Shown: in pieces, positions 6,031-61,297 of the stretch
Layout of the letters: the number at the start of each line of letters is the position of its first letter
Numbering within the stretch: the first letter of the stretch is position 1
Assembly (NCBI GenBank): GCA_973895155.1
Contig: OZ316893.1
Span: 24,665,520-24,729,519, forward strand
From: Marsupella aquatica
Taxonomy: Eukaryota > Plantae > Marchantiophyta
Direction: 5' to 3'
DNA: 64,000 nt
Notes under the pieces: generated by a model
The model's database searches: none
What the model was told of the DNA's origin: nothing
The model's input: the letters and a program-made list of their open reading frames with translations, nothing else
Made by a program: the position numbers and the translations under genes

Positions 6031-6111
6031 TTCACACATTGGATTATGACTTGTTGCCTAATTGGACCATATTAGGCTTGAAATTCTAACAGGTGGTTTG
6101 TTCTACGTAGG

Positions 6112-28048: not shown

Positions 28049-28785
28049 CTGGCAAGTGGAAGATTTGGAATAGCAAGTTAGTAAACAAATAGCTAAAACG
28101 ATCATTTGTAATCCCTACGTAGACATATTAAACTGAAATGAAAGGAAAAAATACCTTTATGAGACCCGGGCTCAGCAATGCCTATAGGTCTTTTGGTCCA
28201 AACTTGATGAACCCAATCTGGAAGTAGGAGGGAGAAATCTGCAAATATACAATGAATTAAGCAATGACTTATGGTAAACTATAGAAAGGGATGATAGACC
28301 CTCAAGTTACAGTAAAAATAAAAAATGCCAGGAAAACAAGCTTTACCTTTCAGATGCCCGAGCTCTCGGAATGCATATGCATTAGCCAAAACTTTCAAAA
28401 CAATGGGGAAGTGCCCTGCAACTCCTAGAGTGTTCCACCCCTTCATGTTAATGAAATAAAGAAAGCATACCCTCAATTAGAATAAAACCTACCCTAAACA
28501 TGAACATATAAAACCATTACCCAAACCCCTCAGCTAAAACCTTACTCAAACCCCTACCTTAAACCCTAACTCAAACTCCATCCTAAGTTACCTATCCATA
28601 TTCCCTGATTACCTATCAAACCCTTACCCAAAAATTCTAACCCAAACCCCTCAATTAAAAATGAAACACAACTTAGAATTAAAATGGAACCCAACCCCTA
28701 TATTTAAAACCTAACCCAAACCCCTAAACTTAAACCAAAATCAAGCCCCTACCCTAAACCCTAACCCAAACCCCTAAACTTAAAC

Positions 28786-32979: not shown

Positions 32980-33003
32980 CAGCCTATTCATTAAAAGTGT
33001 ATT

Positions 33004-33340
33004 ATTATTTGATTTATGTACATTTGGGCAATGAAAAGTGTACTTTTGGGCTTGGAAAAGTGTACATTTGGCCAATGAAAAGTGTACATTTGGGGATAAA
33101 AAAGTGTACAATTGGTCTAAAGAGTGTATATTTGGGCAATGAAAAGTGTACATTTGAGCATCAAAATATGTACATTTGGCTTAAAAAGTGTACATTTTAG
33201 TACATTTGGCCTAGAAAGTGTACATTTGAGTGAAAAAAGGATACATTTGGCTTAAAAAGTGTACATTTCAGTGCATTTAGTCTAGAAAGTGTAGCTTTGA
33301 GTGCAACAAAGAGTACATTTGGCCTAAAAAGTGTACATTT
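33004..33340. repeat. Subterminal array of aagtgtacatttg(g) motifs (left end of B)
   Basis: About 14 degenerate ~21-bp units; the same motif recurs at 61165-61250 near the right TIR. Confidence 0.85.
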
Positions 33341-33564
33341 TCCTGAAATTTTTTATTGTACTAATCATTTAAAATAAAGAAATTAATAAAAAATATTTTT
33401 AATTATGCAGAAAAAATAAACATTCATATTCATAATAATCAAAAGTTTAGAAAATGAGTAGATAGTCTACTAAGTAACTAAACACTCAATGGCATGGTCT
33501 CACAATATATATAACTCTTACATAAAAACTAGTAACTATCTAATTATACCTTAGCTAGTGACAA

Positions 33565-34184
33565 CTAAGTGTACTTGTCCATCCTTTGGAGATAACTTTG
33601 GACAGTTTGTAGAACATTTCGAGGAATCTTCAAACCTCTGCCAACCATGTTTTCTTCCTTCATTCCAGATTTAAAACCATACATTGCAGAATTTGCATAC
33701 TGCCATTAATGTTGAGTGTTCTCACCAAATCCTGGATCTCGTTCCCATGTCTTGGTGGACATGAAACAATTGAGATACCTAGCACTCTCACTCACATCAA
33801 GTTTAGAGTGTTTAGGCCTCCACCATTCCACGGGGAACATTGGAGCATATTGTTGAGTCAAAGGAGGGTCTCTTGAAGATGCAATTGGGACTTCATGCTT
33901 AGGGTCCACCTGACCCAAAGCTCTCACCAACCAGAAATGACCTCCACCATTTTTCTTCTCCCAATCATCCTCGGGTCGAAGAAACACAAAGTTTCCTTCA
34001 CAAATATCCTGGAGGGGAATCCACCGTCCTTGTTCTCTCTCAGCTCGAGATCCAACAAATGGTGCTGCTTGATCTTCAATCTCTTCCAAGACTTCATTTT
34101 GAAGAGCTGTCATCTCTGCATTCTCCTCATCTTCACTTAGAGGACCACTCTGTTCGCATGCCGATTGGTTGACCTTGTAACCAG
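33565..34184 (-). pseudogene. C-terminal part of the element B transposase, displaced by the CACTA insertion
   Basis: Joining across the CAG TSD gives ...FWPKTNHGT-GYKVNQSACEQSGPLSEDEENAE-MTALQNEV..., in frame with ORF 33706-34113. Confidence 0.85.
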
Positions 34185-37100
34185 CACTAGTAGAAACCGG
34201 GGGTATTTAGACCCCATTAAACGACTATTCAGTACCGTATAGGACTTGGAAACGACTGGGAAGGACTCCAGTCCTTTTTAGGACTGCGAGTCGTATGTTT
34301 TGTTACTATAATTAACTGAGTCCTTTATAGAACTGGTTTGTAAGTCGTTTAATAGACTGGATTTTCAGTCTATTGTAGTCTTTGTGTGGGTAGCTTTGGT
34401 GAGTCGTTTTCAGTCTTTTATACACTAGTAGAAAACATTGTCTTTAAATCCAAAATGTTTTCACATGATTGATATTCAAAATGAAATCCACAATGCGTCC
34501 ACAACAAGACCCACAACAAGATTAAAAATGTAAGCATGTTACATCACAATGATTGGAAACCACTAAACAATAACAAAAACATCATATATATGACATTCAC
34601 AATAAAGAACTCAAAGAACTCCTAGATCTTATATTGAAAGGATCCAGACATTTTTATTGTTAACAATTGTACATTTTAGAAACTGTCAATAGATCTACTA
34701 TGTGGGCAATCATGACCGTCTAATCCTATCCCCCAAACTAGCTTATGCTCCTTGAACTTTGTCAAACTTGCTCAAGGAGTGATTTCATTGCTCACCAGAA
34801 ATTGATCATGGCAAGACATGTACAATTGATGCAACAACAGTCCTGTAATCACACACAAGAGTTGTGAGACATCATGTAATCTCTATTATGTGAAATAATT
34901 GTTAGGCAGTCTGGTTCCAATTGGTTAGACAAAATGAAAATTCACCTGGGCAGAGGCTCTGTTGGGACATTGTTCACCTGGGCAGAGGAATATGATGAGC
35001 TCAATCTAACAGTTAAAGGTACAGTTGGAGCATACCAGTTGCACTATCATCTCAAGGATTACTTACTCCTGCATGAAGAATTACTTTAATCTTTCAGAAA
35101 TTAATCCCAACTTTGCCATGCCAACTTGAGAATCAAAACTACTGCACCACACAAAAACTTCACTACATTTGTACTTTAATCTGTACAAGTGATATGCAGT
35201 AAGTAGCTTATTGCAAGAAACACACAAAGGTAGAATAGAAAAAAATAATCACCTTAGCATGTGAAGTCCTCAAAACCCATAGGATGGCCATAGCACTACT
35301 GTACACAACAGAGAACAAACTACAGTTATTTTAGAAGAGATTAGGCACAAATGCTCTTGTTTCACCCTCCAAGAAATAACCTTTTCAAACCAAATTGTCC
35401 TGCACCACACAAAAACTTCACTATATTTATACTTTAAGTTTTACAAGTGATATGCAGTAAGTAGCTTATTGCAAGACACACACAAAGGTAATAGAAAAAA
35501 AAATGATCACCTTATAATGTGAAGTCCTCAAAACCCATAGGATGGCCATAGCATTACTGTACACAACAGAGAACAAACTAGAGTTATGTTAAAAGAGATT
35601 AACATGCTATGCTTGTGATCACAGCGCCTCTCAGATCCCCCCTCCTTATGCTGCATCAACTTTGTGGCCCAGAGGTGGCCTAGAAGTATCAATAGGTTGT
35701 CCTATTCATGCTCTCTCGTTTTCTATTATGCAATCACCAAGGCCACAAGAGATGAGAAACTTCTTGGACCAAACTTTGATTCATTAAAAACGAGAACTCC
35801 CCAAATTAGAATTAAGGATGCTTCTAAGCTTTGAGGCGCCCAGATCCCTCCCCAACCTTATGCTGCATCCACTTCGTGCCCGCCCAGAAGTGTACATTGC
35901 CGAGAACACTTGAAACGCTGCATTGGAGATATACACATGTTCAGATTTCTCAGGCAGCAGTCTACAAAACAAAGAGGGACAGAGGGAAAACGTGATAGCA
36001 AAAAAAACAAGGGAGAGAGAAAAAGATTGCCACCTGCCAAATACCAGGTCATTTTCTACTTCAGAAAATTCCATGCAAAAATCTCTCTACAGATCTCTTA
36101 GATGTGGTACAATCCTTACACAACTCTTGAAATGAGTGCAGGACCTGAGTGTCAATGGAAGCGTAGCAAGCCAGAGGCAATTCTGCAATTCTTTAAATCC
36201 AAAATGTTTTTTGCAGAAATTCGTTTTCAAAACCTCTCTAGGCTGACATACCTGTAAAGCAACATAATTTTGAGTTAATGACATTGTCAATCCGCTACAA
36301 AAGAGAGAGTACTATGATGCATTAGGATGATCTCTTCAATCTGCTTCTAAAGACTCCAAGATCGCAAATTTTACTTAAGATTTGAAATAGTTACACTAAA
36401 TTGAATTTCTTAGATTTTTGCAGAACTTTTCTTGACAGCTATTTTCGATTTGACATTGTTGAGTCAAATCCTCGTGAAATTCTGTGTGGAATACATCGTT
36501 GGAAAGATCTTCAAGAGACTATTCTAATGAGCCCATGATTATCAACATTCATCAAGAATTGAGTGAGTAATTTGAAAAGTAGATTTTGCAGTTCATTGTA
36601 CGTATGGACAGTGAAGCTTGAAAACATCCACGTACTGTACTGAGGAGAAACTTCAAGAGTTAAATGGTTGTGGCATGGTGCATCAGAAAGATATGTTAAA
36701 TCCGCTTCTAACCACTCCAAGATCGTAGATTATACTTAAGATTTGAAAAAGTTACACTAAATTGAATTTCTCAGATTTTCGCAGAACTTTTTTTGACAGC
36801 AATTTTCAATTTGACATTCCCGAGTCAAATCCTAATGAAATTCTGTGTGGAATACATCATTGGAAAGATCTTCAAGAGACGATTCTAACTAGCCAATGAT
36901 TGTCAACATTCATCAAGAATCGAGTGAGTAATTTAAAAAATGGATTTTGCAGTTCATTGTGTGGACATTGGAACTTGAAAAAATCCACGTACCGTATTGA
37001 GAAGAAACTTGAACACTAGAACGACTTTGGCACCAGCAGGTTGATCCACGTTGGGCGCATGAGCAAGAGTATCAACATAGCTAGATCGATTTCCAACAAA

Positions 37101-38123
37101 ACAGTCTACCAACACCAAGATTTGTGGTTCAAACAAATAGAAAAAGTCTATCCAAAGCTTTTGTATTCTCCCACAAACATATGGAACAATGCAGAAAATA
37201 GGGAACACTGATTCTGTGTCGTAGTGCAATTCAGCGAGACCTTGCTCTGACTACAAAGGTGCGCATTGTTCGAATGAGCTGCTGCCTTATCCTTGAGTCC
37301 CCGATCCACTTCCTTCTCAAATATTCCACCACTGCCACTAGATACCATGAAAGCTAAGCGTAAGAAATATTAGGCAGTTTTGCTAGCGCAAGTGCTGAGC
37401 TCATGAGCAGGGCAGATTTCAGGGAGATTGAAACAAGCTCTTGCATTTTCAAATTGGGTAGCGGTGTCGTGATTTTCTCTTAAGTTATAAAAAATTGTTT
37501 GTTTTAATATGTTATAGATTATATAAGTAATTTAGTAGTTAGATTATTAAATTTAAACTTTATTAGACTTCTTTAGCTATATTAACGGACTATAGAAGTT
37601 CCACCAATGCATATGAGTAGTTCCACCAACTACAATAATATTCACCAACGCATAGTGATTCTACCAACGCACAGTAGGTCCACCAGCGCATAGTAGTTCT
37701 ACCAACGCACAGTAGGTCCACCAATGCATAGTAGGTCCACCAACGCATAATAGTTCCACCAACGCATGGTAGTTCCACCTACTAAAAGTAGTTTCACCAA
37801 CTATGAATAGTACTAGCAAACTCTTAGGTATTAGATGTTTGACACTTGGCCTTCATCCAAGTGCTTGGGCTTGATCCATGCCCTCTTGGTGTGCACTATA
37901 AATAAAGTAGTGAGGGGCACTCTCCCCTCATTCTGCAGTGTTTATCATTCAAGGTTGGGAAACTCTTTTGTGCCTTGAACATAGTAGTGGGGCGTCCTTT
38001 GGCCCGGATAGCAAAGGAATGAGTGGTAGACTTATAGATGGGACCTTAGGGAATAAGGTTTCTTTGGAAATATAGGGGTGGGGCGTCCTTTGGCCCGGAT
38101 AGCAAAGGAATAGGAGAGCCATC

Positions 38124-38339
38124 ATGAATCCAGGAGAGAGAGTTATCCCTGATCTTCCCCTTCGTAATTCGTTTTCGATTAGAGTCCATCTTTTAGACAA
38201 ACCATCTATGAGGCAACATCTAACCTATCATTTTGGAGCTCAATTTGCAACTGCTGTTATGGTTTCTAACGAGCCAATAATATACCCAGTGGTGTCATAC
38301 CGAGAGGAGTGGGAGTGCATCATCTTTGTCCTTTATTGA
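38124..38339 (+). CDS. LTR-encoded small protein 1 (71 aa), function unknown
   Basis: ATG-initiated, downstream of the TATA box. About 38/63 ungapped identities by eye to the ORF at 59588-59794 in a divergent solo LTR. Confidence 0.65.
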   Translation: MNPGERVIPDLPLRNSFSIRVHLLDKPSMRQHLTYHFGAQFATAVMVSNEPIIYPVVSYREEWECIIFVLY

Positions 38340-38343
38340 AGTC

Positions 38344-38550
38344 ATGGATCTGACTAGGAGTCCGGATGATATTCTTGTTTCATTTTCTCTTGGAGATATT
38401 AGGATCATATGTCGTAAGAAAACTAATTTTCGTGATGTGTTGGTCCGCAAGTATGGTGAAGTAGGGTTTAACAGTATTTTAGTTTCACCTGAACCTTTCT
38501 TAATACCCACTACCCTTGTTACTAGAATTATCATTTTGATTTTAGTGTAG
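38344..38550 (+). CDS. LTR-encoded small protein 2 (68 aa), function unknown
   Basis: ATG 4 nt after the ORF1 stop. About 50% identity by eye to 59377-59586, with many synonymous codon changes. Confidence 0.65.
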   Translation: MDLTRSPDDILVSFSLGDIRIICRKKTNFRDVLVRKYGEVGFNSILVSPEPFLIPTTLVTRIIILILV

Positions 38551-38768
38551 AACTTATGAGCATGCAAGGTTAACTTCAAAAGAGCCAACATGCTCTTTCC
38601 AGAAAACACGGTCACCCGGACATAAGTGGCGACCATACTGGGGAACCGCTGGATTTGGAAGTTAGCTTGTGCATGTTTGAGTTCTAATGAATGAAGAGAG
38701 ATATGGTTTTGGAACTTTGAGTTCTTAACTTGTTTATATTATTAAGTCAAGAGGGAAGAATTGCAATC

Positions 38769-41700
38769 ATGGGAACTGAGATGAATCCAACTGACATGGA
38801 GAGGTTGTCATCCTTGATTGCTGCTTACTTACATGGAATGAAGGAGAAGGAGATGGAGGAGAACAAGAAGAAGAAGTTGCTTGGTAGGACCATGAAGTAC
38901 CTACACTCGGTTCTTACCAAGCAAGGAGAATTTGATGGGCAAAATGTAACCAAGTATCTCAAGGGGTACTGGACGGAGGCTACAATTCATAAGATTGATG
39001 CAGAAGTTGCAGTCAAGGAGTTTGTATCTTTAGTAGAACCTGAACTCAAGGGAATTGTTACTACCTTGATAGATGGAGCTACTGGGGAGAAGCATGGAAG
39101 GTCTTTGAGTTGAAGATGAAAGAAGAATTTCAGCTTGAAGATCCAGATCGGGTTACTCAAGCATCTTTCCTTGATTGGGTGGCCGATAGAAGCAAGAAGT
39201 TGGGACCTCGAGAACTGATAAGGGAGTTTACGAAGAAGTTCAATCAGCTTCCTAAGATTGGTTCTGAAGTTATCAAGGTACAGAAGGCTACTTTACTTAT
39301 CCGAGCTGCTGATGAGAAGCTTCAAGACGAGTTGGAGCTTGCTCTGGAATTGATGAACCCAAGTCGTGGAGCCAGTCCACCAACTTGGGAGGAGATTGAG
39401 ATTGCTGTGCTTAGGGTCAGCCAAAAGCATAGAAGAAAAAAGCTGAGTCATGAAGGTGCTCTACATGCGGTTGCACCTGTGACTTCTATGAGGAGAATGG
39501 AGAAAATAGAGTCAACAACTGGTAGGGGTGAGAAAAGCATGGACAAAATGGATGAGTTGTCTGAACTCATGAAAAATCTTACCATTCTTGCCACCCAAGC
39601 CTTCGAGCAGATGGGAGGAGGTGCATCAAGACCAGCGTCAAGAGGTGGTCCAGGAGCCGGGAGTTCCATTGGCGGAGCAAGGAGTTGGAATTATATTTGG
39701 TGTGATAGCAAGGAGCACTCAAGGCGTGAATGTGGGGAGCTTTCTGTTGCTCTGAGAGAGAGAATAGTCAAGTTCATTGATCATGATGGCATAAGAAAAC
39801 TTGCTTATCATGATTCAGGAGAGCTTATTCCAGTAAACACAAACAAGGGCGGTATAAAGGTGTTGGTGGAGAGAAGAATGACTGAACATCATACTTCAGC
39901 CATTGCAGCAGCTTTTGGAGATCAGGATGAGCATGAAGCAGATGTTTACACCCTCTTTGGGAGTTCTTTGTCAACAGAGACAGACAAGAAGAGACTAGCA
40001 AAGTTTGTAAGGAGGAAGTCAGGTTGGAGTGATCCAATGTTGATCTCTTCTTTCACTGCAGAAGTGGGATCTCTATGGGATTCTATGGTAGAGGAGAAAC
40101 GAAAGTCGTCGGAACCTTTGGAAGAACATGCCAAAGGAAAACAAAAGGTTGAGCCTGGACCCTCTATTTTGCAGCCATCATCAAGAGTCCCAACAAGGAA
40201 GAGTGTTCGATTTGAAGATAGAGGAAGTACAACAAAGGAGCCTACTTCGACTCCTTCATCCTCAAAGGAGATGGAAGTGGTAAAAAAAGAGAAGGTGGAA
40301 AAGAAAGGACCTGATTGGGTCCTTGGAAGAGATGTTGAGCAACACATTGCGTATGATCAAGTTGCTGAGAAGTTTTGGAAAGCGGAGGTGAGCGGAGTCA
40401 CCAATGAGGAGTTTTTTGCTTGCATGAACTCCAAGGCTCAAGATGCATCACTTGCAAAGGTGAAACAAAAACGATTTTACAAGGAAGGACCTCATGCCTT
40501 GGGAATGGAGGTTTTTTCTGATGTTGATGAAGATGGAGAAGGTTCAATTGTTTCTCAAGCCAGTGTGGAGTGTGAAGTGTATCAAGTGAATGCGGAGAAG
40601 ATCCCTAGACCACAGATGCTAGGGTCTTCGACAAAGGAAGTTCCTGAACCAAAGATGTCAGGAGTTGAGGTATTGGAGATGTGGAAACCATTGGCGAAAG
40701 CAACAACAGGATTTGCAGTGACCCAGGATATGGCAAAAATTAGTCGTGAAGAGGTGCTCAAGGCCTCACAAAGTGTGTGGGTCATGTGTGCTTCAGCTAT
40801 GAAGAATTCTGATTTAGGAGACGACAAGGAGTCCATCTTGGAGCCGTTTTGGGCAAGAACTTGCTCAGTTGTGGAGGTAGAGCTTGTAGGAATGGAGGGC
40901 AAAGCTCGAGCATTGATTGACACAGGATCTGAGGTGAATCTAATGTCAAGAAGCATCTATGATCTTGGGCAATGGATGATTGATTGTGATACTCAATGGT
41001 CTGTCAACTCAATCAATCGTTCAAAGAATATACTTTGGGGAGGATGCCCTGGAGTATCAGTGAAGGTTGGCCATGTGATAGAACCAACTAACATCTTTGT
41101 GCATGATAGCTTGCCCTATGATCTCATTCTAGGGCAGCCTTACATTACTCAAGCTCGAATGGAGTACAAGGTCCTACCAGATGGCACTCATATGGCAAAG
41201 GTAAGGAGTCAGGATGAATTGCGGGTTATCCAATTTCCTGTAGTGAAACCTGGACATTGGAGGAATCGGAAGGAGTTGAGAGGACCTGAACCCAAGGAGG
41301 GAAATGAGGATTTCCGGAAGGCGTCTTGTTAAGCAATGCGGGAAGGCGGGAAGCCATCGCCAATGACCCGCTGGTGACTTGGAATGTGAATAGTTTGTTG
41401 GCAAGCTCATTTGAAGGTGAAAGCTTGCATTGTCAAATTTCTTATGTGAAAGTGTGTGAAGCTACTAAAAAATTCAAAAAAAAAATTGTAAGGATTGAGG
41501 ATACTATGCAAATACATGGATTGCTAGAGGAAAGCGAAGAGATTGAAGGCCTTCTAGATGAAGAAGGAGTAAAAGTATCTTTGAAAGAAATAATTGAAGG
41601 TCTTTCAGAGGGGAAAGCTCATATGGAAATCAATCATGAGCTGTATGGCGAGTTGTCTCAATTTGTTGAGGTCAACACCAAGTACAAAATAGTGGAGAAG

Positions 41701-44700
41701 AAAGTGAGACCAACAGCAATTCCTTTACCTTTGGATGCTAGGGAGATTTTGGAGAAGGCAGGTAAATAGACCAGTCTTAGAGATCGGACTAAGATTGGCC
41801 ACAAATTCACGAAGGAGACCCTTAATCAACTAAGGATTGGTGATGATGGGTTGCTGACAAAAGAAGAGAGAGAAGAGTTTCAGCAAATGATTGGTGAGCA
41901 TGGTAAGGCTTTTGCCTTTTGTCCTGAAGAGATGGGATGTGTGGATCCTAGTGTTGTTACTCCTATGGTAATTTTCACTGTCCCGCATGTTTCTTGGGAC
42001 TTGAAACTCATTCCAGTGCCCAAGGCTTTGTTACCTAAACTTATTGATCTATTAAAGGAGAAGCTTTCCACTAGGATTTTGGAAAGAACAGATGCACCTT
42101 ATTCTAATCGTTGGTTTACCATTCGTAAGAAAAATGGTAAACTTAGATTTATTCAGGACATGCAACCACCTAACAAGGTTACTATTCGCAATACTGGAAT
42201 AGGACCTATAGTAGATGAGTTTGCGGAAGAATTTGCTGGTAGAGCCATCTATTCATGTGGTGATCTCTATTCAGGCTATGATCAGTTTCAGTTGGCTCAG
42301 AGTAGTAGAGATATCACCACTATGAGGACACCTTTGGGGCTACTTTGCATGTGTACCTTGCCTCAAGGGGCAACCAACTCGGTGGCTCACATGCAAAATG
42401 CCATGAATAAGGTATTACACTGTTTCATTCCAGAGAAGACACAACCATTCCTTGATGATATGCCAATCAAGGGATGCTTGGAGACAAAGAAAGATGAGAC
42501 TATACGTGAAGATGGTTTGCGACAATTTGTATGGGAGCACATTCAAGATGTGAAAGCAATCTTGAAGAGGTTAATTGAGGTTGGGCTCACTCTTTCTGGT
42601 GAGAAATCTTCATTTGGGCTTCGTGAAGTCCTAATTGTAGGACAAATTTGTGGAGTTGATGGGAGAAAGCCAAATGGAGGAAAAGTAGATGCAATCAATC
42701 AGATGAAAGATTGTAGGACAACTTTGGAGGTGCGAAGGTTCCTTGGCCGGCGCTTGTTTGTTCTATAGGATCTGGATTCCTCACTTTGCACATATTGCTG
42801 ATCCTTTGTACGGATTATTGAGGAAGAATGTGCACTTTGTTTGGACAGAGGCACATAAGGAGGCTATGCAAAGGTTAAAGGAGGCCTTACTTAGCCCCCT
42901 TGTTTTACATCCCTTATGCTATGATGGAAGACCCATCATTGTCATTGTAGATTCAAGTCTTGATGCTGCTGGATGGGCGGTAGGACAGGATGATGAGGAG
43001 GGGAGAAGATTTGCAGCAAGGTTTGGAGCTAAGATCTTTTCAGCAAGGCAAAGGCATTACCCTCAAATCAAGCGAGAGTTGTGGGGAGCAAGGATAGCCT
43101 TGTGTCAAGAAAAAGTCTACTTGATTGGAGCACAAGTCATTCTTGAGACTGATTGTTTACCACTTTTAGGGATGATTGCTAACTGTGATACTCCAGACAT
43201 TGCTATGCTACGTTGGATAGCTTTTATTAGGATGATCAACCCCAAGCTTTGACACATTGTTGGAAAAGATAATCCAGTAGCAGGTATGCTTTCAAGAGCC
43301 CGCTATGATCAGAATGAAGTGGAGGCAGTTCAAGTGATGAATGGAGAGTTTGAGGTCTTAACATTTCGAGAGGAGCTCTATTCTGGAGAGTTGCTCTTGA
43401 TTGGAAGGTACCTTAGTACTCTTCACAGGCCTGTTGAAATGATAGAAGAGAAGTTTCAACAATTACGGAAGAAGGCTTACAAGTTCATGCTCAAGGATGG
43501 TGTTTTATGGAGAAGGTCTTTGAAGAAAGGACATGTTCCTTGTAGAGTTCTTGATACAGATGAAGAGAAGAAGAGAGTCTTATGGGATTCTCATGATGCT
43601 GTTGAAGCAGGACATCGAGGAGTTAGAGCTACCTATGAGCGGGTTCAAAGGTGGTACTGGTGGTCAGGCATGTATGTGGATGTAAAATCCTATGTTGGAT
43701 CTTGTGAGAGTTGTCAGTATTACTCTAAAGTTCGGTTTAGAGATGGACTTAATCCCACTAGTCCTTTTTCTTTACATTTTCAGTGGGCAGTAGATGTGGT
43801 GTACATGCCATGGGGAATTAGGGGGGCAAAGTACCTTGTCCTTGCAAGAGAAGATTTATCTTCTTATGTTGAAGGAAGGGCTTTAACCTCTAACACTACA
43901 AAAGCAGTATGCAGGTTCATACTTGAAGACGTTATAGCACGTCATGGTTGTTTTGTGCAAATGAGAGCAGATAGAGGAGAGTTGAATTCTGAAGAGGCTA
44001 CAGAATTTTTTGACCGGTTCAACATCAAGCTCAAACTCACTACTGCCTACAACCCAGAAGGAAATGGAAAGATTGAGCGAGGGCACCCATCGATAGTGAA
44101 TGCCTTGGTGAAATCTTGCCGAGGAAAACCATCGCTTTGGCCCAATCTTCTACCATTTGCTCTTTTGGCAGATCGAATGACATGCACTACCACAACAGGA
44201 ATTACGCCTGCCGAATTAGTCTCTGGACATTTGCCTTTGATGCCGATTGAGGAAAATGTTCAAAGTTGGAGGATGATTGAATGGCAAGATAGAATCTCCC
44301 AAGAAAAGTTGCTGGAGCGAAGGATTGAGCACTTTAGCCAGACCAAGGAGAAGATTGAGGAGGTGTTACTAAGGCTAAAGGAGGCTCGTGAGAAGAATAA
44401 GGAACGATTTGACAAGACCCATCGTTTGAGACCAATTCCCATCCAGAATGGAGATTGGGTCTTGATCTATGAGGGAGGGTTGGAACAGCAACATTCTACT
44501 CTGAAGAAGTTTGCACGTCGTTGGAGAGGACCATTTGTGGTGGAGGAGGTTCATCCTAATGCAACATATGTGGTAAGAGAACTTGATGGAGCAATTCATC
44601 GTAATCCCTATGCAGGGAAGCGAGTGAAATTGTTTAAACGAGGAACTCGATTTGTGATAGAGGAAGAGTTTGAACCCGACGACTATGAGGCTTTAGATGA

Positions 44701-44713
44701 AGAAGACATGTAG
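38769..44713 (+). pseudogene. Gypsy gag-pol (gag, aspartic protease, RT, RNase H, integrase) with a few stops and frameshifts
   Basis: PR LIDTGSEVN; RT GDLYSGYDQ...PQGATNS...FLDD; RH IVDSS...ETDC; IN SHD..GH...CESC, AVDVV, RADRGE, NGKIERGH, RWRGPF. Confidence 0.95.
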
Positions 44714-44766
44714 CGATTCTAGGTGTGGTGCATACCGGAAGATGCACAGGTTTGGTAGGGGTGATG

Positions 44767-50800: not shown

Positions 50801-51037
50801 GAGTCAATGGCATCGAAAAGATTTTCTACCCTTGGTAGTGGAAATGGTAGTTTTCGAGTTGGCTCGAAAACCTTCTCCACAAGCACACCAATTCAATTAT
50901 CTCCCAACAATATGTTGTGCACCCTATCCTAGGGGTTAATTTTCTAAACTGTCCCACAACCGACATCATATCCATCAATTGTCAAGGTCACATCATCACC
51001 TCTTGAAAACCTTCCAGTCATTCTCGGATTTAGTAAC
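47842..51037 (-). pseudogene. Element B transposase main body: tandem TNP1/EnSpm-like N-terminal domains, Cys clusters, DDD core
   Basis: CCKHKCC, ICKDAF, FAKCTLC, IIHDKMDQAK, LQMDNSAKDNKN, FLMVGHTHKDVDALFS. Frameshift at ~49550. Homologous to 16110-18782. Confidence 0.88.
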
Positions 51038-51119
51038 CTGCACAATTTTCAGAAAAACCATCACAAATCCGAATGACAAGAATTTGAAGAGACTCACAAT
51101 TATCCATACGGTCATTTGA

Positions 51120-52480
51120 TTGCCATTCCACGAATCCAAACGTTGGCTCAACTATCACGCTTGGATTGGGGTGGTCCAAATCAAAACCACGAAGATTGTA
51201 TTCCGAAGGTCAAATTTAAGCATCTCGCTTGAATTGGGATCATCCGAATCCAAACCAGCCTCTATCCAACACACCCTCTTGGATTTGGATGGTCCGAATC
51301 CAAACCCAGATGGGATCCCAAAGGTCCCAATTCAACAAACGTGCTTGGATTGGGATGGTCCGAATCCAAACCCAGATTTTATTTCAAAGGTCCCAATTTA
51401 AGCACCAGGCTTGGATTCGGATGGTCCGAATCCAACACTAGATTGTATTTCAAAGGTCCAAATCCAACCCACCATCTTGGATTCGGATGGTCCGAATCCA
51501 AACACAGATTCTATCCCGAAGGTTACAATTCAACAAACCCGCTTGGATTCGGATGGTCCGAATCCAAAACCAGATTGTAATTCAAAGGTCCGAATCCAAC
51601 CCACCATCTTGGATTCGGATGGTTTGAATCCAAACACAGATTATATCCCGAAGGTCCCAATTCAACAAATCGGCTTGGATTGGGATGGTGCGCGAATCCA
51701 AACCCAGATTGTATTTCAAAGGTCCCAATTTAAGCATCGGGCTTGGATTCGGATGGTCCGAATCCAAAACCAGATTGTATTTCAAAGGTCCGAATCCAAC
51801 CCATCATCTTGGATTTGGATGGTCCGAATCCAAACACAGATTCTATCCCGAAGGTCCCAATTCAACAAACCCGCTTGGATTGGGATGGTGTGCGAATCCA
51901 AACCCAGATTGTATTTCAAAGGTGCCAATTTAAGCATCGGGCTTGGATTCGGATGGTCCAAATCCAAAATCAGATTGTATTTCAAAGGTCCGAATCCAAC
52001 CCACCATCTTGGATTCGGATGGTCCAAATCCAAACACAGATTCTATCCTAAAGGTCCCAATTCAACAAACCCACTTGGATTGGGATGGTGCGCGAATCCA
52101 AACCCAGATTGTATTTCAAAGGTCCCAATTTAAGCATCGGGCTTGGATTCGGATGGTCCGAATCCAAAACCAGACTGTATTTCAAACGCCCAAATTCAAT
52201 CATCTCGCTTGGATTGGGATGGTCCAAATCCAAACCGAGATTGGATCCCAAAGGTCACAATTTAAGCATTGCACGCTTGGATTTGGATGGTCCGAATCCA
52301 ACACACCCTCTTGGATTCGGACCATCCGAATCCAAACCAAGATTGGATTCTGATCAGATGGTCCCAATCCTAGAAAATGGATTGGATTCGGATCATCCGA
52401 ATCCAAATAACAATCTAGGATTAGGACCATTATAATCCACACATCAAGTCTGGATTCAGATGGTCTAACTCCACAATGAA
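51120..52480. repeat. Array of TTGGATTCGGA-TGG-TCCGAATCCAA hairpins in ~67-bp subunits and a 200-bp higher-order repeat
   Basis: ttcaacaaa markers at 51661, 51861 and 52061. About 20 copies of the palindrome between the divergent genes of B. Confidence 0.9.
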
Positions 52481-53463
52481 GATTATGTTGAGATGGATAT
52501 ATTGAGATTGAGATCTCTTCTAAATGTCTTAATCAAATTTAGACATTCTGGGTTTTTTGGAACATTGGGTAATTCGTGAAATAATAATTGGGAAGTCACT
52601 AGAATGCAGAACAAAGTGAAAGGTAAACCCTAAACTTCCCTAAGAACTCAGAATAAGCAAAGCGACTAAGACCATAACTCACCTCAGCAGTCTTGTTTTT
52701 CCAGTATGTCTCCAAGGTTGGCTCTGCTACCTCTAAATTGATGAATAAGTTCATATCAAACTAACTAAGAAAGCTATCAAAGCCACTTCAAGTCTAAACT
52801 CCATCAGAGAGAAGAGCTCAGGAGGAGTTGCGCAGACCTGGATGCCCAAGTGAAGATATGAAACTAAAACAACAATGATGTCCGTAGAGTACCTCTTATA
52901 CTCGTGGGTTGGTATGTTCGGCCCTGAATGTGCGATCCGATAAGGTTGAGGCAACACCGAGTATCGCGGTTAGAACAATCATCCAATCCTTTTTCAATCC
53001 ATTGTGTCAGACAATACAGCTAGCGTCCCACCCAAATTGATAGGACCAGATCCCTTCTTGGTCTCTATCCGTACAGAGATCATCCATACAGAGATCATCC
53101 GTACAGAGATGATCCGTGCAGCAATCATCCGTACAGAGATGATCCGTGCAGCAATCATCCGTACGCAAACAAGCCTTTCAAGAGGGGGTAAAGGGAGAAC
53201 GAGGTCTTCCATAGACCTCATTGTTGTTTCGCTCTCTGTCGCTCCTCACTCTTGCTCTAGCTCCTCATTCTCGCTCCTCACTCTCGCTCCTCACTCTCGC
53301 TCTAGCTCCTCATTCTCGCTCCTTGCTCTCGCTCTTGGCTTGCTGCCGCCGCTATCCCTTGCCCTTGCCCTAATTGCCTTCTTGCCCTAATCTGCTGCAA
53401 CGCCCTAGATCTTGCCCATCTTGACGTGTCCTCAATATATCCTACCATGTGTCACTCCTAAAA

Positions 53464-56400
53464 ATGGAAGTTGCCAAGAAAACCGTCATCGTCCTGCTCG
53501 CCGAAGAATCTGATGACTTGGATCTCTCCTCTGTCGGTGATCTTGTGGCCCTAGCGCTTGGGGATTCCCAAGAATTTCAATCACAAGTCCAAAGTAAGTT
53601 TCCGGAGGTTTATTCATGCATCTTAAGTTGTTGGATTTGGATGGTCCGAATCCAAGAGGGTTGTTTGGATTCGGACCATCCGAATCCAAGTGGGTTGTTT
53701 GAATTCGGATGGTCCGAATCCAAGTGGCTTGATTGGATTCGGATGGTCTGAATCTAAGAGGGTTGTTTGGATTCGGACCATCCAAATCCAATCAAGCCAC
53801 TTGGATTTGGACCATCCGAATCCAAGTGGGTTGTTTGGATTCGGACCATCCGAATCCAAGTGGCTTGATTGGATTCAGATGGTCCGAATCTAAGAGGGTT
53901 GTTTGGATTCGAACCATCCAAATCCAATCAAGCCACTTGGATTCGGACCATCCGAATCCAAGTGGGCTTCTTGTATTGGATTCGGATGGTCCGAATCCAA
54001 GAGCCCTCAATCTCACATTGACAGTGATTTCTTAAAACAAATTTCATGGATTTGAAGTCTAATATGAATTTTCACTCTCCAATGCAGAGAGTGATCTGGT
54101 GAATACAACTCTCGCCATTTCAGAGGCAGACTGCGACGATGGGCTCATTTTGGAGGACCGCGATCCAGGATTTCGGTGGGGACTTGAGTTCTCGCGAGTA
54201 AACTTCCGCCTGAATTCATTTAACATTCAGGATCCAGTGTTATGTGTCAAGATCAGGACAGGCAACAACCAAACATTGGTCATCGGACCCGTGGTCTCTG
54301 TGGGAATGATAGGAAGAGGAATGAATTCTATCATTGTAGAGGTGTCGGACACGATGAGGTGGGCAAAGTTGCAGCTCCCGTCAAAGGCTTTCTCGGCCGA
54401 GTTCAATGTGGAATGGTATGCAAGTGGGGAATTAAGTGTGTTGTCGATGGGATTCTTTCCAAAATCCTACACAAAGGAGAAGATTATTGGAGGACTGAAG
54501 GGAATGCTTCCTTTGGACATTTTTATGGGTTTCTTTATTTGAAACTCAACATTGTAAACAACCCATCAAAGTTCTCACTTCCATCCACATGGACTCTTAA
54601 CAATTTGCTTCAGAAAGCAGGTCTGGTGTCACCAGACTCAAATGTTTGGATCACCAAGGCACTAGCCTTTGCACACACGCTTGACCTGGAAAAAGCAAAT
54701 CTATGGGTAGAGTCTTTGGTGAAGTTGAGGAAAAGTACACAACCATAGAACATAATTGAGTCTACGCCAGCCAAAGGAACTCCAGCAACTACGACGGAGA
54801 CAGCACAAACTACTGCAGCAACAACCATGGATAGAGCGGCAGGGAAGCGGAAGCAGAGGGAGAAGAAGCTTCCGGTTGAGAAACCTACTTCAGTTGAGAA
54901 GAAGATCACGGCTCCAGCTGAGAAGAAGAAGTTTCCAGCCGAGAAGAAGTCGAGGGAGAAGAAGAAACAAAAAACCGACACCGGAGTTGTGAATTCAACT
55001 CCTGTAGATTTTTCATTACATGCTGAAGATGAGGGTGATAGGCCACATGCTCCAGAGGAGAAAGACGTCTTAGAAGGGAATGAAGTTCTTCAACAAATGG
55101 AGCAGTACTATACTTTTGGGATAAACGAAATTTTTCTGATCCTAGTTGAAAGTATTTTTGCCGCACCAGCGAGACTATGCTATCGGATGATGAATTTTGA
55201 TCATGTGCAAGACATTGTTGATTCCATGATCAAAACACCTGGGCATGAGCCACATGTCGCTGATTTGATTCCTTTTAACGTCGAGCGAAGAAAGGTACTC
55301 CACTTTGAGAATACGGAGTCGGACCGGAAGGATTTTTTGGCCGGAGTGAAAAAGGGCAAGGTCCAATTTCTAGCCGTTAGTGGTCAGCACTCTGCGAGAG
55401 CTGCGAGATGGATTCGTGATTGGGCAACGAAGGATGCCAAGCTCACCCAGTTGGCCAAGAAGTTAGAATTCAGGAAATCCAGAATATTGTCTGATCGCAC
55501 ACCGTCTTCAATTCTTGTTGAGCACTCCATGAGATCGAACGCCATCAATAGCATGATGGTGTTTCAGTCTTGCTTTAAAGATACAGTTGTCCATGCGAGG
55601 CGGCAGTTTGTTGAATGTGGAAATCCAGACAAACCAAAACATGGCGACAACAAAACAAATGCTCAAGACAACCAAAAATTTCAGGTAAGAAATGTGATTA
55701 CTTTGTATGCATTTCTCTACCATAGAGAGTAATTCTATTTTGGATTCGGATGGTCTCAGTCCGACACGATTTGTCAAAGAGTATTGGAACTTTTGGAATG
55801 TTTAGTATGAGTTTTGTTTTTGATTGAGACCATCCGAATCCAAAACTATTATCGCACATTAGAATCCTTTTTTTCCAACCCTTGAGTTGGGGATAACTGA
55901 CTAGCTTTCCTTTTGGATTGTAGGATTGGTTGGCTCTGGCAAGAATGACTATGGGCAGGAAGGACTTGCAAAATGTATGCTGGCTACTTTTTGCGGACAA
56001 CGATCTTTTTGAGTTGTGGGGGTTAGTCTGTGAGATGTGGTTGCATGGGAAACTTCCTGATGGAGCTGGGATGGAAGGAAATAACAAGTCCGAAAAAGCA
56101 ATTACCATTGCCATGTTTTGTCCCTTTGATGGTGAGTTGATCTCACAGAAAGACATCACAAAAATCCTGACACAAGTGAAGTCAGGAAAGGCATTGCTGA
56201 AGAAAGATGCCACAAATAAATCTGACATACCCTCAATAGAGGAGCTTGCGAAGGATGTGAAAAAAGTGAGGAAGCTCAAGTCTCTCATTGAAGAGTACTA
56301 CTTCGGCAAGGATCCAAGGAATTTTCCTTCGGATACCGACTAGAAGAAAGTTGTAGAGGTTCTACCATTGTTGAGTGTTGACGCAGAATTCAATAGATGC

Positions 56401-58298
56401 AGAAGAGTGGCTGGTGAAGTTTTTTTGTCAAATCTGTTGAAGCCAAATCATACCAGGGAGAGTGAAATCTTGCCAATAGCTCTGGTGATGCGCCTTGATG
56501 ACATTTATTGCCAGAAGTTTGGCGGAGGGACACATTCTCGGAGCCAACCGTGGGTCATGTTCTTTAGTGACAATCTAATGAAAACAGTTGATCCACCAGC
56601 AATAGAAGAATCATCTCCAACGTGCTCACTTGCCATTGTTGACTTCAGTCGAGATCACCAGAAGCTGTGGACGGAAGCAGAAGTTTTGGTCTTTCTGCAA
56701 TACATTGTGGAGCTACCACAAAATCTTACAATCGTTGTAGCCATAACTGTTCATCCGGGGCCTCTTGCAATGAATGTCCTAAGCTCACTTCGAAAATTGG
56801 GACAAGAGAAATCTCTCACGATTCACATTGTGTATGGGAGTTATTCTCGAGAGGATCAACCGCACCCGCTTGATTCATGTTGGGGAGGCGGAATTGAAGA
56901 AGTTATATTCGCATGAATTTCTCGAGATGAAAATGTCAATTGGAATGATGTTTCAAACCCAATCACCCAAAGCCAAAATTCTTTTTTGGTTCAAAAGATA
57001 CTAATTTTGAGGTCACCAAGATTGACACTGGGAAGGCAAAGGTTGACACAGACGACGTGTCAAAACCCGAAGATCTAAAAATAATGCTGACCCCAGAAGA
57101 GGCGACCAAGGTTTTGCACATGGCCCCTCGATTTGAGATAGTTGGTGCTCGTGGTGGTTGGGTGAATCCACATGCCAAACCCACACGGATGATACAGAGG
57201 ATTATTGAATCCTTGTCAGAAGCTGGAGACTTGATTCTTGATTTTTTCTCGGGTGGTCAAGTGATGAAGACAGCATTCTTGGTGCAACGCGAATGCTTTG
57301 TTTATTGTGACTCTCAAGATGAGAGACACTTTGTGGAAGCGTATGCTTCATTCCTTTGCGAGAGGGTCCCCTCAATCAAGGAAAATTGGGATCCTCGTGG
57401 TGGGAGTTCTAGGCATTGGAAACCCACTATTGCGGATGTTTCTGTCGAACATGAATCAGCTGATAATTCCGAAGAAGTGGGCGCTAAGTCAGTCAAAGAT
57501 GATGGGGAATCAGAGGTGGCGTATGCAAAGAATTTGGATGACCGTGTAGGTCAAAGTGAAAGCATAGAACCCTACGATGTTGATGATAACGTTGGTCTTG
57601 CACCACGCCCTTCATCAGGTGCAGATGATGTCCCTTTGGAACCCTATGAAGTTGAGGTTGATGACAACTTGGACAAGGATGGTCTCAATCCAAATATGGT
57701 GCAACGAGAAACGGACGGAATTGGTGATCCGATTGACATTGATACATTTGAAAATTGTTCGTCAACCAATTTGGTCGCGGACGGTGGAGACAGACAGGTC
57801 AATTCGAATGAAGCTGACACCCAAAATTTGATTCCCGGGACGGCTGTCGAAGTACGTGAGATTCCCATGACCCCAGAAGCCCGTGCATCAGCGACTGTTG
57901 ACAACCAGGCGGGTGCTTCAATTTGTCCTGACACACTCTTTTCAGCTTCTGATGACAAATTGGTTTTTGTTCGTTCACACTCGGGAAGTCCAGTTATCCT
58001 TCCTCTCTCAAAGAAAAAAGGGAATAGAGTTGGATCAACCGGATGGAGGTCACTTGAACGTGATGCACGATGTTATGTGTGGAAAAGTGGGCCAAATAGA
58101 GGCCAAGAAGTTTCATTGGATGCTGCTCCATCGATTCTTAACAGGAAGGAGTATAAGAGAGGAGAATTGAGATTGATAACTCCTATTTGGACGTCACCTT
58201 ATTGGGTAGAACAAAGTACTTCAGATGTCAATTTTGAAATCCAAGAGGAGCTAGGTGTTGACATTATTGATGAATACGGATCTCTTTTTTCAGACTGA
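53464..58298 (+). pseudogene. Element B ParB/Srx-like domain plus degenerate N6A/N4C methyltransferase (introns, stops, frameshifts)
   Basis: YRMMNFDHVQDIVDSM...FLAVSGQHSARA parallels A's RTVDHLHVKNI...GGNHGARA. CSLAIVDFSRD aligns with YTLAIADIPYG. WVNPHAKPTRMIQRIIESLSEAGDLILDFFSGG is an MTase C-terminal motif. Introns ~53593-54088 and ~55685-55923. Confidence 0.75.
53630..54000. repeat. Second array of the ttggattcgga-N3-tccgaatccaa hairpin, inside an intron
   Basis: About 11 copies at ~33-bp spacing, with two further copies at 55740-55845 in the next intron. Confidence 0.9.
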
Positions 58299-59376
58299 GA
58301 TCAAACCGTCTGACTTTCCATTTTTTCATACCAATCTAAAATACTTCTCGGTCTCACAGAATGCGGTCAGCAATTAGAGCCTCGATATCCACCTACGCTC
58401 TTTGGGGCTTCTAAAAATGGTATGTAGGTTTTCTTTGTTGTTAGTCATTGTCTTGTATTTTGGACTGAGACAATCTCAGTCCAAAGTTCAAATTTGGTTT
58501 TCTTTCTAAGAGTTGTATTTGTTGCACTTGTAGAATCGAGACCTTGTCCCATCAAGCGGAAGTTGCTGATTTTGGATCTTAACAAAATACTTTGGGATTC
58601 ACTTGAATTCCAAAGCAAGGGCAAATCCAGAAACATTGTGACCCCAAATGGAGTGCATTGGGATAGATCAAATGGAACTAGTCGCATGTATACAGAGAGG
58701 CCAGGGTTCCATGAGTTTCTAAAGTTGGTTTTTGACCGGTTTGACATTGCAATTTGGACATGTGCTGGGATGCCGCGGACAGTGAAAATGTTGAACATGA
58801 TGTTCACTGTTGAGAAGCGGTTGAAACTGAAGTTTGTATTCACACAGGTGGAAGCCTTTGACACAGGCATTCAAAGGCGTGACATTACAAATGGAAAGGC
58901 ACATGTGCTATTGAAGGATTTTCGGGTGGTATGGAGTGCATTTGGAAATCTATATGATGAAACCAACACACTCCTTGTGGATGACTCCCCCTTGAAGGCA
59001 TTTGCCAACCCAGACATGACCGGACTATTTCCAGTGCCCTACACGCATGTCAATCGTGGAGACAATTTTCTTCTAACAATTCTTTGGCCATGTCTTGAGA
59101 AACTGTCACATGCAAGTGACATTCGTTGTTATCTTCTCCTAAACTCTCCAAAGTGGTCTCTATTGCACATTAAGAGAGACAAGGCAAAAAATGAGATTAC
59201 TTATGATCAACTTAGTAAGAGATGTGCAACAAAAATTTGGAAGTCACAGTATAGGCATAGTATGCTGGACCTCAATAGCAATGAGATTCCTTGGGCTATG
59301 AAGCACCGTTGTCTGGGGGGAAAATGTGGTTCTTGAGGAAGCACCGGGCCTATGGCTGCTAGTGTCAAGAGAGAAC

Positions 59377-59586
59377 TTAAGTTAAGATCATGATTACTAT
59401 TCTAGACTGGGTAGCAGACACAACAAGGAACGGTTCCGTGGATGAAAGCACAACATCATAACCCTTTTCTCCATACCTACGGACTATTGCCTCCTTGGCA
59501 GCTACCTTGGGTCGAGTTACAAAACGAATATCTCCCAACGAGAAAGAAACGGGAGGCTCATCGGAGGGAGGTTTGTTGAGATCCAT
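59377..59586 (-). CDS. LTR small protein 2 homolog
   Basis: MDLNKPPSDEPPVSFSLGDIR...EPFL...RIVIMILT; ATG 1 nt after the ORF1 stop. Confidence 0.65.
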   Translation of the reverse strand: MDLNKPPSDEPPVSFSLGDIRFVTRPKVAAKEAIVRRYGEKGYDVVLSSTEPFLVVSATQSRIVIMILT

Positions 59587-59587
59587 C

Positions 59588-59794
59588 TCAATACAAGATA
59601 AAAATTGTGCAAGCCCAATCCTGCCCGTAAACTACATAAGGGTATACAATTGGCTCTATTGAATTTAATACCGCAGTTGCAAATGCTTCTCCAAAGTGAA
59701 AAGTCATATGCTGGCGCATTATCTCTTTTTGGAGTACATGAATTCTAATAAGGAAAGGATTAGGGAGAGGAAGAATAGGTACTGGTCTGGGCAT
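59588..59794 (-). CDS. LTR small protein 1 homolog
   Basis: MPRPVPILPLPNPFLIRIHVLQKEIMRQHMTFHFGEAFATAV...WACTIFILY, colinear with 38124-38339. Confidence 0.65.
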   Translation of the reverse strand: MPRPVPILPLPNPFLIRIHVLQKEIMRQHMTFHFGEAFATAVLNSIEPIVYPYVVYGQDWACTIFILY

Positions 59795-61297
59795 TATCGT
59801 ACTATCAAATATTTCATCCAACTAATTTTTATTCTAATGACAGGAGATAGAATCATTCAACAAAAAGATCATCCATTTCAAACAAATATCATGCATTGAG
59901 TTAACTCTAAGTATATACATGCAGATGTTTATCTTAATAGGTTGATCTTCTTTTGAATGAAAATACTATCTGAAGGTCCAACTCATACAAAATACCTCTG
60001 GCCGAGCCGAAGCTCTAAGCAAGAGTGCATGAGTGGGTCTACTTCATAAGGGTTATATTCATAGAAGAGATCATCAAGTCCAATGGATTTTTAAGACTTC
60101 ACAACTTAGTTGATGAAAAATGGGGAGTCTGGGGAGAGAGCCCCTCTCCTCTTTATTTATAGTGCTCACACCTCAAGCACACGGATCAAGCATGGCACAC
60201 GGATGGAAGCCATGTGTCACACATCCAAGGCAAGTAAGTGTGCTAGTACTGTAGTTACGTGAGTGGAGCAACTGTAGACAGTACACTGTAGTATGCACAC
60301 TGTAGATCGTACACTATAGCATGCATACTGTAGATCGTACACTGTAACATGCACACTGTAGATCATACACTGTAGCATGCACACTGTAGATTGTACACTG
60401 TAGCATGCACACTGTAGATCGTATACTGTAGCATGCACACTGTAGGTCTTGCACTATAGCATGCACACTATAGATCGAACAATATAGCATGCATACTGTA
60501 GACCGTGTACTGTAGCATGCACACTGTAGGTTGTGCACTGTAGCATGCACACTATATACTGCATATGCGAGAATTTAAACTACTATCCTATACTACTAAG
60601 CTATACTTAGGAGGAACTTACTAAACAAAGAATCCCCACGACACCGTATATGTAGCTTACGTCCTGAGGTGGAACTTGACGATGCACTTGTCACCTCACT
60701 TGCTAGATCATTTGTAGGACGGGAATATTCAGGTCTGTATAGAGAAAATCCCAGACACTTTTTGCGGGAGATTATAGCAGTTAGGAACAACACCACCAAA
60801 TTTCATCTCCCTGAAGATAAAGGGAGTTGCAACCATGATATTAGGGTAGATAGTAAAGGAGACAAGGGCACGTGCTCAAATAAATATTGTAAGGAGCACT
60901 TTGTTTAGAGATCTGACTCATGTTAAGCCCATTAGACAGTAAAAATGGGTGCCAGCCCTGGATATTCATTGTAAGTTTGGACACAATTGTATATAATTAT
61001 TTCACACATTATCAATCAATGGTCCTTGCCTAGGCTTCTTTGTGCGTAAATGTTTTTACAAGTATGATCTCTATCCCATGGTTCTTTGTGAACTAATAAG
61101 TAATATAATACTATTATAATTAATATAATATAATATATTAATATAATACTAATAAGATTTGGCCTATAAAGTGTACATTTAGGTATCAAAAAGTGTACAT
61201 TTGGGCTTCTTAAAGTGTACATTTGGGGACATAAAAGTGTACATTTCAGGACTGATTTGTGAACAAAAGAAAATACACTTTTAATGAATAGGCTGAT

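Follow-up and report, generated by a model that had tools for sequence, protein, structure and literature searches.

The window analysed here is a 64,000-nucleotide stretch of the liverwort Marsupella aquatica (GenBank assembly GCA_973895155.1, contig OZ316893.1, positions 24,665,520 to 24,729,519 of the forward strand; coordinates below are those of the window). It contains two elements, A and B, that are broken copies of large cut-and-paste transposons, likely of the Sola1 kind, each pairing a transposase gene with a cargo gene whose putative product joins a ParB-like domain to a methyltransferase-like domain. In element B the two genes lie on opposite strands and are divergent, the transposase on the minus strand and the cargo gene on the plus strand. 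Its features are as follows (TIR, terminal inverted repeat; TSD, target-site duplication; ORF, open reading frame; LTR, long terminal repeat).

32974 to 32977, plus strand: left TSD copy of element B, ACTA, 4 bp (right copy 61298-61301), seen in the window and in empty-site contigs
32978 to 61297, no strand: element B as a whole, 28,320 bp, or 14,660 bp minus the nested CACTA-type insert and that insert's TSD
32978 to 33003, plus strand: left TIR, perfect, 26 bp
33017 to 33345, plus strand: left subterminal repeats of about 22 bp, 14 core matches, with 4 more at 61168-61250
33706 to 34184, minus strand: C-terminal part of the transposase, severed by the nested insert; contigs continue from 34184 into the sequence at 47845
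34185 to 47841, no strand: nested CACTA-type element, TIR beginning CACTAG, 3-bp TSD, with a Gypsy LTR element inside from about 37462
47845 to 50892, minus strand: main part of the transposase (DUF7869), acidic motifs DKMD, LQMDN and GHTHKDVD, frame change near 49.5 kb
51161 to 54000, no strand: 27 matches to the palindrome TTGGATTCGGA-N3-TCCGAATCCAA, in two arrays that separate the divergent genes; two more in the cargo intron at 55742 and 55821
54075 to 55684, plus strand: first exon of the cargo gene, encoding an N-terminal domain, a linker rich in lysine and, at about 55070-55560, the ParB/Srx domain; reading frame shifted near 54530 and stopped at 54746, start codon position approximate
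55685 to 55923, plus strand: cargo gene intron, GT-AG, phase 0; the Calypogeia homologue P0011 is joined at the equivalent place
55924 to 58298, plus strand: second exon of the cargo gene, encoding a helical region, a methyltransferase-like domain and an acidic tail; reading frame stopped at 56341 and 56914 and shifted near 56950
58428 to 59336, plus strand: NIF/FCP1-like phosphatase ORF, extra cargo, PF03031 E 1.8e-15
61272 to 61297, minus strand: right TIR, 26 bp; other copies terminate at 61297

Taken alone, the window is compatible with a 24-bp TIR and an AT duplication, as proposed in an earlier note on this DNA, or with a 26-bp TIR and an ACTA duplication. Contigs from four public runs (X1 to X4, from two studies) provided the junctions. 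Empty-site contigs, which depart from the window after 32978 (X1, X2) and rejoin it at 61298 (X1, X3, X4), hold a single ACTA, AT being absent, and other copies of the element stop at 61297 in at least 6, 4, 8 and 11 contigs of X1 to X4, respectively, or at 61298 where the flank begins with A (at least 8, 4 and 8 contigs in X1 to X3). From these junctions, the TSD is 4 bp long and element B extends from 32978 to 61297; the inverted ends are as exact as the note had it, but the 24-bp TIR with an AT duplication is ruled out. A 5-bp TSD with one asymmetric end base likewise fits the empty site. Restoration of the host reading frame, formerly offered as proof of these ends, cannot choose between the two duplications since both change the frame by the same amount. 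Element B is also inserted at further, different sites. A further group of contigs (at least 5, 5 and 6 in X1, X3 and X4) departs from the TIR five bases early, at position 61292, and may represent a subfamily with differing termini.

The transposases of both elements match DUF7869 (E 1.1e-41 in B, 4.1e-46 in A), are 33% identical to each other over their cores and each carry three acidic motifs, which we take to be Sola-like. CACTA/EnSpm (CMC) elements have CACTA/G termini and a TSD of 2-3 bp. Element B has ATCAG...CTGAT termini and a 4-bp TSD, and its sole CMC-type Pfam match is weak (Transposase_23, E 8.6e-4, below cut-off, in an N-terminal ORF), so that of the original Sola/CMC-like label we reject CMC and retain Sola as likely. 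The flanks of other copies of B give the consensuses TAAT, GAGT, GATT, GATT, AATT, ATTT and AATT, which are AT-rich with T at position 4, near the AWWT/AWDT target preference that is a hallmark of Sola1 (PMC3845634), with an agreement of only 0.43-0.57 and with ACTA as the TSD of the copy in the window. The transposase has no match in PDB, the literature searched yielded no mention of DUF7869, and PMC7466625 does not mention Sola.

Element A has the same two genes in convergent orientation, together with a Ulp1 protease and an inserted retroelement.

5821 to 6022, no strand: 7 matches to the palindrome GGGATAC-N3-GTATCCC, those here upstream of the cargo gene and others in its intron (8224-8418) and at 20874
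6082 to 8072, plus strand: frameshifted 5' part of the cargo gene, encoding an N-terminal domain, a ParB-like domain with GGNHGARA and a helical region that resembles a DNA-binding one
8480 to 9480, plus strand: methyltransferase exon, DIPY and NPYQKP; one stop at 8914, frameshift near 9116, S-adenosylmethionine (SAM) motif altered in this copy
15115 to 16095, plus strand: Ulp1/C48 protease pieces, extra cargo
16110 to 18854, minus strand: transposase (DUF7869), split across several frames
19108-19568 and 20440-20616: palindrome variant GGGATCC-N2-GGATCCC, upstream of the transposase, 8 matches

The description of A as carrying the same genes, diverged, convergent and with a better preserved methyltransferase holds, but its extent of 5.8-21.2 kb is provisional because the search of its flanks for a TIR and TSD was negative: none was found between 3.0-6.1 kb and 20-24 kb, where all inverted-repeat pairs derive from the palindromes (the best being 29 bp, 5825-5853 / 20863-20891).

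An alignment-based scan identified six related loci (L001-L006) in one metagenome, where a scan with a single protein gave none. In all six, GT donors and AG acceptors, read by eye, occur at matching, in-frame, phase-0 places; the donor of A in the window is apparently off by a base. The Calypogeia protein P0011 is joined at the intron of B, and single annotated proteins of Riccia sorocarpa, which are gene predictions, contain both domains in 4/10 cases by profile and in 3/10 by weak Pfam matches. From these conserved sites and annotated homologues, which agree with the spliced second gene predicted earlier, we infer that the ParB and methyltransferase exons are spliced into one protein. A convergent DUF7869-type transposase lies downstream of the methyltransferase in L001, L003 and L005, and on none of the other three contigs. 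This pairing in three of six loci, together with the selection on A-type proteins described below, upholds the view of a TIR transposon lineage that has long kept a spliced ParB and amino-methyltransferase gene, and we regard the gene as almost certainly genuine transposon cargo. Other cargo (NIF, Ulp1) varies among elements; neither these two genes nor the internal palindrome arrays figured in the earlier note. In L001 the gap between methyltransferase and transposase is only about 320 bp, and Ulp1 is therefore optional cargo. A further protein, P0141, combines in a single ORF a NIF domain with the terminal part of a B-type ParB exon, and for that reason the NIF phosphatase may be recurrent cargo.

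We searched for relatives of the region of B containing SGQHSARA, which had been called ParB/Srx-like. A profile of this domain retrieved 124 clusters at 50% identity, a few weak matches being doubtful, and a model built from 67 sequences reached a predicted local distance difference test (pLDDT) of 93.5. Among the Foldseek matches to this model listed to rank 34, all were ParB, Noc, KorB, PadC, Srx (sulfiredoxin) or related (best E 4e-3), and the top 8 of 16 VIA-align rows were chains of the ParB/Srx fold (best Z 7.5, root-mean-square deviation 4.3, 121 aligned residues, under the Z of 8 below which the tool rates matches as common). The two fold searches agree and bear out the previous assignment: the matches are consistent, each of them weak, and the modelled region is predicted to adopt the ParB/Srx fold, which SerK, SbnI and Atu1540 presumably share. 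The ParB domains of A and B are homologous (E about 1e-6). The helical region that follows in the A-type matches HTH_ParB below cut-off in one of seven members (E 7.9e-4); its PDB sequence matches are weak, 4 of the 5 being Spo0J/ParB (E 0.2-1.2). Phages gave no match to the ParB part. On viral contigs, 0 of 44 candidate stretches were confirmed. Look-alikes in the Atlas, which we treat as leads only, comprise unnamed clusters of molluscs, sponges and cnidarians, the fungal DUF3723 and one ParB_N cluster; since they include animal and fungal clusters, the module is not plant-specific.

The C-terminus of the cargo protein, proposed to be a beta-class amino-methyltransferase, matches PF01555 above cut-off in B (E 4.9e-6) and below it in A (E 1.5e-4), and the assignment stands to that extent; the catalytic motif is missing in B. 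Two METHYLTRANSFERASE clades can be distinguished, an A-type with catalytic motifs and a B-type without them. The A-type has 12 homologues of 55-63% identity, with PF01555 on 11 of 12, and both D[IV]PY and the GxG SAM motif (xLCxGTG) are present in 12/12, one with N for the first D. Its layout is motif IV, target-recognition region, motif I, with a predicted Rossmann fold. The top Foldseek matches of the A-type model, which is poor (pLDDT 43), are beta-class enzymes led by CcrM (E 3.8e-6), and comparison with PF01555 clusters of the Atlas gave TM scores of 0.69-0.74. DIPY aligns with DPPF, DPPY, DPPY and DLPY of four phage enzymes, one of which (DLPY) shares the hydrophobic second residue. Since Asp at motif IV suggests N6-adenine as target (PMC8885841), the A-type product would be N6-methyladenine (6mA) rather than N4-methylcytosine (4mC).

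Selection was assessed on L001-L005, L006 being excluded as frameshifted and distant. Synonymous sites are saturated in 9 of 10 pairs, with nonsynonymous divergence (pN) of 0.05-0.22, and the tenth pair has a ratio of nonsynonymous to synonymous rates (dN/dS) of 0.06. As judged from these sequence comparisons, both domains of the A-type are under strong purifying selection, which rules out a neutral passenger for this clade. The excluded locus stands for a third subtype of cargo, farther removed from the A-type (42% identity), in which DIPY and the intron position are conserved.

The B-type comprises the protein of element B, a Logan protein, P0011 of Calypogeia fissa (43% identity) and proteins of Riccia sorocarpa, assigned from the 10 of 10 long matches looked up, out of 124. 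The pattern [DNS][PILV]P[YFW] occurs in 0/11 members, and 7/11 show DFSR, DFAR, DLIA, DLTS or DLAR after the matching strand, four Riccia models being truncated or without that segment. In element B, DFSR and DFFSGG replace the catalytic and SAM motifs, the latter being DFFSGG or similar across the B-type, and likeness to PF01555 is restricted to the C-terminal part. Element B therefore most likely belongs to a clade of predicted pseudo-enzymes, and self-marking cannot be assumed for it because this clade is without the catalytic motif.

Each subfamily carries its own palindrome. The motif TTGGATTCGGA-N3-TCCGAATCCAA has 30 matches in element B, GAGCGAGAC-N2-GTCTCGCTC has 6, 12, 8 and 5 matches in L001-L004, and ACCCGAT-N6-ATCGGGT has 9 in L005. 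The four palindrome families are mutually exclusive, no motif being found in another family's locus; L006 has none of the palindrome motifs and was left out of the count. In L001-L005, 40 of 40 copies are non-coding, though 62-81% of the DNA is coding (0.02 or less in shuffles). The sites occur in introns, in intergenic gaps and upstream of genes. Those of B occupy a central position, 4.5-7.4 kb inside the 14.7-kb element, and the intron, whereas the ends carry the subterminal repeats of about 22 bp, a distinct motif; this disfavours the palindromes as end sites of the transposase.

Our results favour, with a probability of about 0.6, a reading in which the spliced protein binds its cognate palindromes and regulates the genes of its element, the A-type likely also methylating adenine nearby. 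The cargo gene would give rise to the ParB-methyltransferase protein, which would dimerise and grip the palindromes of its own subfamily through the ParB-like helix-turn-helix region; once bound, it would activate or repress the promoters of its own element, and in the A-type only it would methylate adenines locally, probably to 6mA. Binding of the protein to its own palindromes appears quite probable from the sequence evidence, activity of the A-type as a DNA methyltransferase has about even odds in its favour, and an anti-silencing effect is doubtful. As the B-type clade has persisted despite lacking the catalytic motif, methylation looks like an optional addition to a core function of DNA binding.

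Several observations weigh against this reading. Both copies in the window are broken, the six metagenome loci come from a single metagenome, are 2-5 kb long and have no TIR in view, and for the B-type a transposase and cargo within one TIR pair were seen solely in the window copy. Pfam, NCBIfam and PHROG assign no ParB N-terminal family to the cargo domain, nor does a profile search of PDB sequences, the B model has zero Foldseek matches at E 0.001, and its VIA-align scores are of the common kind. CTP-clamp ParB proteins (Spo0J, Noc, KorB) bear an arginine-rich GxxRxxA motif for cytidine triphosphate (CTP), with which bacterial ParB clamps and slides; the Arg following G-x-H is missing in 98/98 motif matches, so that clamping and sliding cannot be assumed for the cargo protein. 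The A-type structural model is poor, as noted, and motif IV of the B-type was placed by eye, hhalign having covered only the C-terminal 64 columns and MAFFT having put the motif elsewhere. The coding boundaries behind the 40/40 count were likewise drawn by eye with the positions already seen, and palindrome type tracks protein kinship, which is no proof of co-evolution.

An alternative is that marking of the element against silencing is the main job of the protein, the ParB part guiding the methyltransferase to the element, where 6mA or 4mC would maintain transcription or block host 5-methylcytosine. This role, put forward for an Ectocarpus element too (PMC12477816), is compatible with the intact, selected motifs of the A-type, with palindromes upstream of both genes and with the association of 6mA with transcription in several eukaryotes (PMC4738411). 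We consider it unlikely as the main function given that the B-type clade, including element B, Calypogeia and several Riccia proteins, is without the catalytic motif in 11/11 members, and that the B-type ParB part still yields its 124 clusters. A broader form of the idea is that land plants host diversifying, transposon-encoded, self-addressed methyltransferases, in which a subfamily-specific ParB reader and its own 16-25-bp palindrome would direct 6mA to promoters and offset silencing, with a reader-only pseudo-enzyme as sister clade; we put this forward tentatively, as a conjecture that is rather more likely wrong than right. If it were true, plants would have in these elements a well-defined source of 6mA at specific loci, and the enzymes would make up a natural collection of methyltransferases whose target sites are long and differ from one another.

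It is improbable that the protein is instead a structural helper of transposition, coating or bridging the element or recruiting the transposase with no action on transcription. Long palindrome arrays, steady pairing with one transposase family and the position of the arrays of A near its presumed ends are as such a helper would have them, but the palindromes of B lie deep inside the element and in an intron while its ends bear another repeat, and those of A-type loci occupy introns and the intergenic gap. Finally, the palindromes might be those of the transposase or of small nested repeats, with a cargo that targets host DNA or RNA in trans or is carried along as a passenger. This is very hard to credit: eukaryotic amino-methyltransferases have often moved to RNA (PMC4738411) and other cargo (NIF, Ulp1) differs between elements, but purifying selection on both A-type domains excludes a neutral passenger, and in red algae too ParB cargo adjoins arrays of inverted repeats, in elements with unrelated transposases (bioRxiv 2025.02.11.637652).

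The window contains other mobile elements. The nested CACTA-type element, which makes up nearly half of the 28.3 kb of B and interrupts its transposase at a site crossed by contigs, is outside the transposase and cargo system. Three LTR-like copies, 95-99% identical, lie at 10413-11902 (inside A) and at 37462-38967 and 44766-45924 (inside the nested element of B), with a diverged inverted piece at 59.6-60.25 kb, inside B. On the minus strand at 23613-28114, a CACTA-type transposase (Transposase_21, DUF4218) stands beside a SET-domain ORF at 26895-27611 (PF00856 E 1.6e-6), a third chromatin- or DNA-modifying cargo within these 64 kb. An ORF at 1047-1415 resembles what we take to be a fragment of ribosomal protein L18a. 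The host retroelement disrupted by B (30.7-33.0 kb and 61.3-64 kb) encodes a reverse transcriptase and, upstream, a C5 cytosine methyltransferase domain at 62096-62842 (PF00145 E 8.5e-7, above cut-off); retroelements with such a domain have been described in dinoflagellates and the charophyte Klebsormidium, the available part of that account naming no land-plant case (PMC5890265).

Bacterial ParB, Noc and KorB act with palindromic parS or operator sites. These proteins (PDB 7ol9, 6sdk, 8qa8) resemble the cargo protein in their N-terminal fold and, weakly, in the helical domain downstream of it, but in the cargo G-x-H-S/G replaces the arginine-rich CTP motif, the gene is spliced and fused to a methyltransferase, and no ParA partner was seen. 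The nearest prokaryotic matches are phage beta-class methyltransferases (PHROG 67 and 498; Rhodococcus phage ReqiDocB7 gp036), which cover 62% of the query at about 25% identity (E 1e-7); the four phage enzymes inspected are stand-alone proteins of about 230-250 amino acids, unlike the fused cargo. Among eukaryotes, MpDN4MT1a/b of Marchantia, also a liverwort, and N4CMT of bdelloid rotifers are likewise beta-class or prokaryote-type amino-methyltransferases (bioRxiv 2021.02.12.428880; PMC8885841). They are host genes that bear (T)SPPY and make 4mC, MpDN4MT1 without extra domains and N4CMT with a chromodomain, and are set apart from the D[IV]PY-bearing A-type by motif and domain layout; derivation of MpDN4MT1 from this cargo is unsupported for the same reason.

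Closer parallels come from algae. In red algae (Bostrychia preprint), giant Plavaka DNA transposons carry the accessory genes PAG2 and PAG3, a PF01555 methylase gene and a ParB-domain gene, of which the latter adjoins tandem inverted repeats proposed as binding sites, and cargo moves among transposon superfamilies (bioRxiv 10.1101/2025.02.11.637652). Unlike in A and B, two separate genes are involved, one fusing the ParB domain to a 2-oxoglutarate oxygenase and the other a SET domain to the methylase, beside an EnSpm-type transposase. In the brown alga Ectocarpus, Sola1-1_Ec32 is a giant Sola1 element of 21.5 kb with a 4-bp TSD, whose accessory gene, on the strand opposite the transposase, encodes a 1104-amino-acid ParB-like and N4C/N6A methyltransferase protein; its authors propose self-binding and self-modification, and cite green and red algal cases (PMC12477816). 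Likened by description alone, B shares the 4-bp TSD, the single ParB and methyltransferase protein opposite the transposase and the giant TIR structure, but its ATCAG...CTGAT termini and 26-bp TIR differ from the AACCG-CGGTT termini and 282-bp imperfect TIR of Sola1-1_Ec32. With this design already published, the claim of a new kind of transposon is not supported; nor is an acquisition from prokaryotes by this lineage shown, given similar cargo on several algal transposon superfamilies and ParB look-alikes in animal and fungal clusters. The best match of the Ectocarpus transposase is Physcomitrella Sola1 (PMC12477816), an entry that may already hold such a gene; we found no description of this cargo in land plants in the literature, Repbase, Dfam, Bao 2009 and Iyer 2011 being outside the search.

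The ParB and methyltransferase design is therefore known, and what we add are its liverwort relatives (Calypogeia, Riccia), the contrast between a degenerate B-type clade and an A-type clade that is predicted to be intact and is under selection, and subfamily-specific candidate target palindromes; in the available part of the Ectocarpus account we found no catalytic-motif analysis, selection test or palindromes. The algal papers leave the function of the accessory protein as a hypothesis, which these relatives make testable, offering open A-type frames with catalytic motifs, distinct candidate sites for each subfamily and, as a natural control, a sister clade that appears catalytically dead. 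Should the proteins only bind, they would represent KorB-like self-regulation in eukaryotic transposons. Should the A-type bind and methylate its own element, it would join the anti-silencing proteins of VANDAL, named as the only known case (bioRxiv 10.1101/2025.02.11.637652), among transposon proteins that modify their own DNA, here with a bacterial-type mark.

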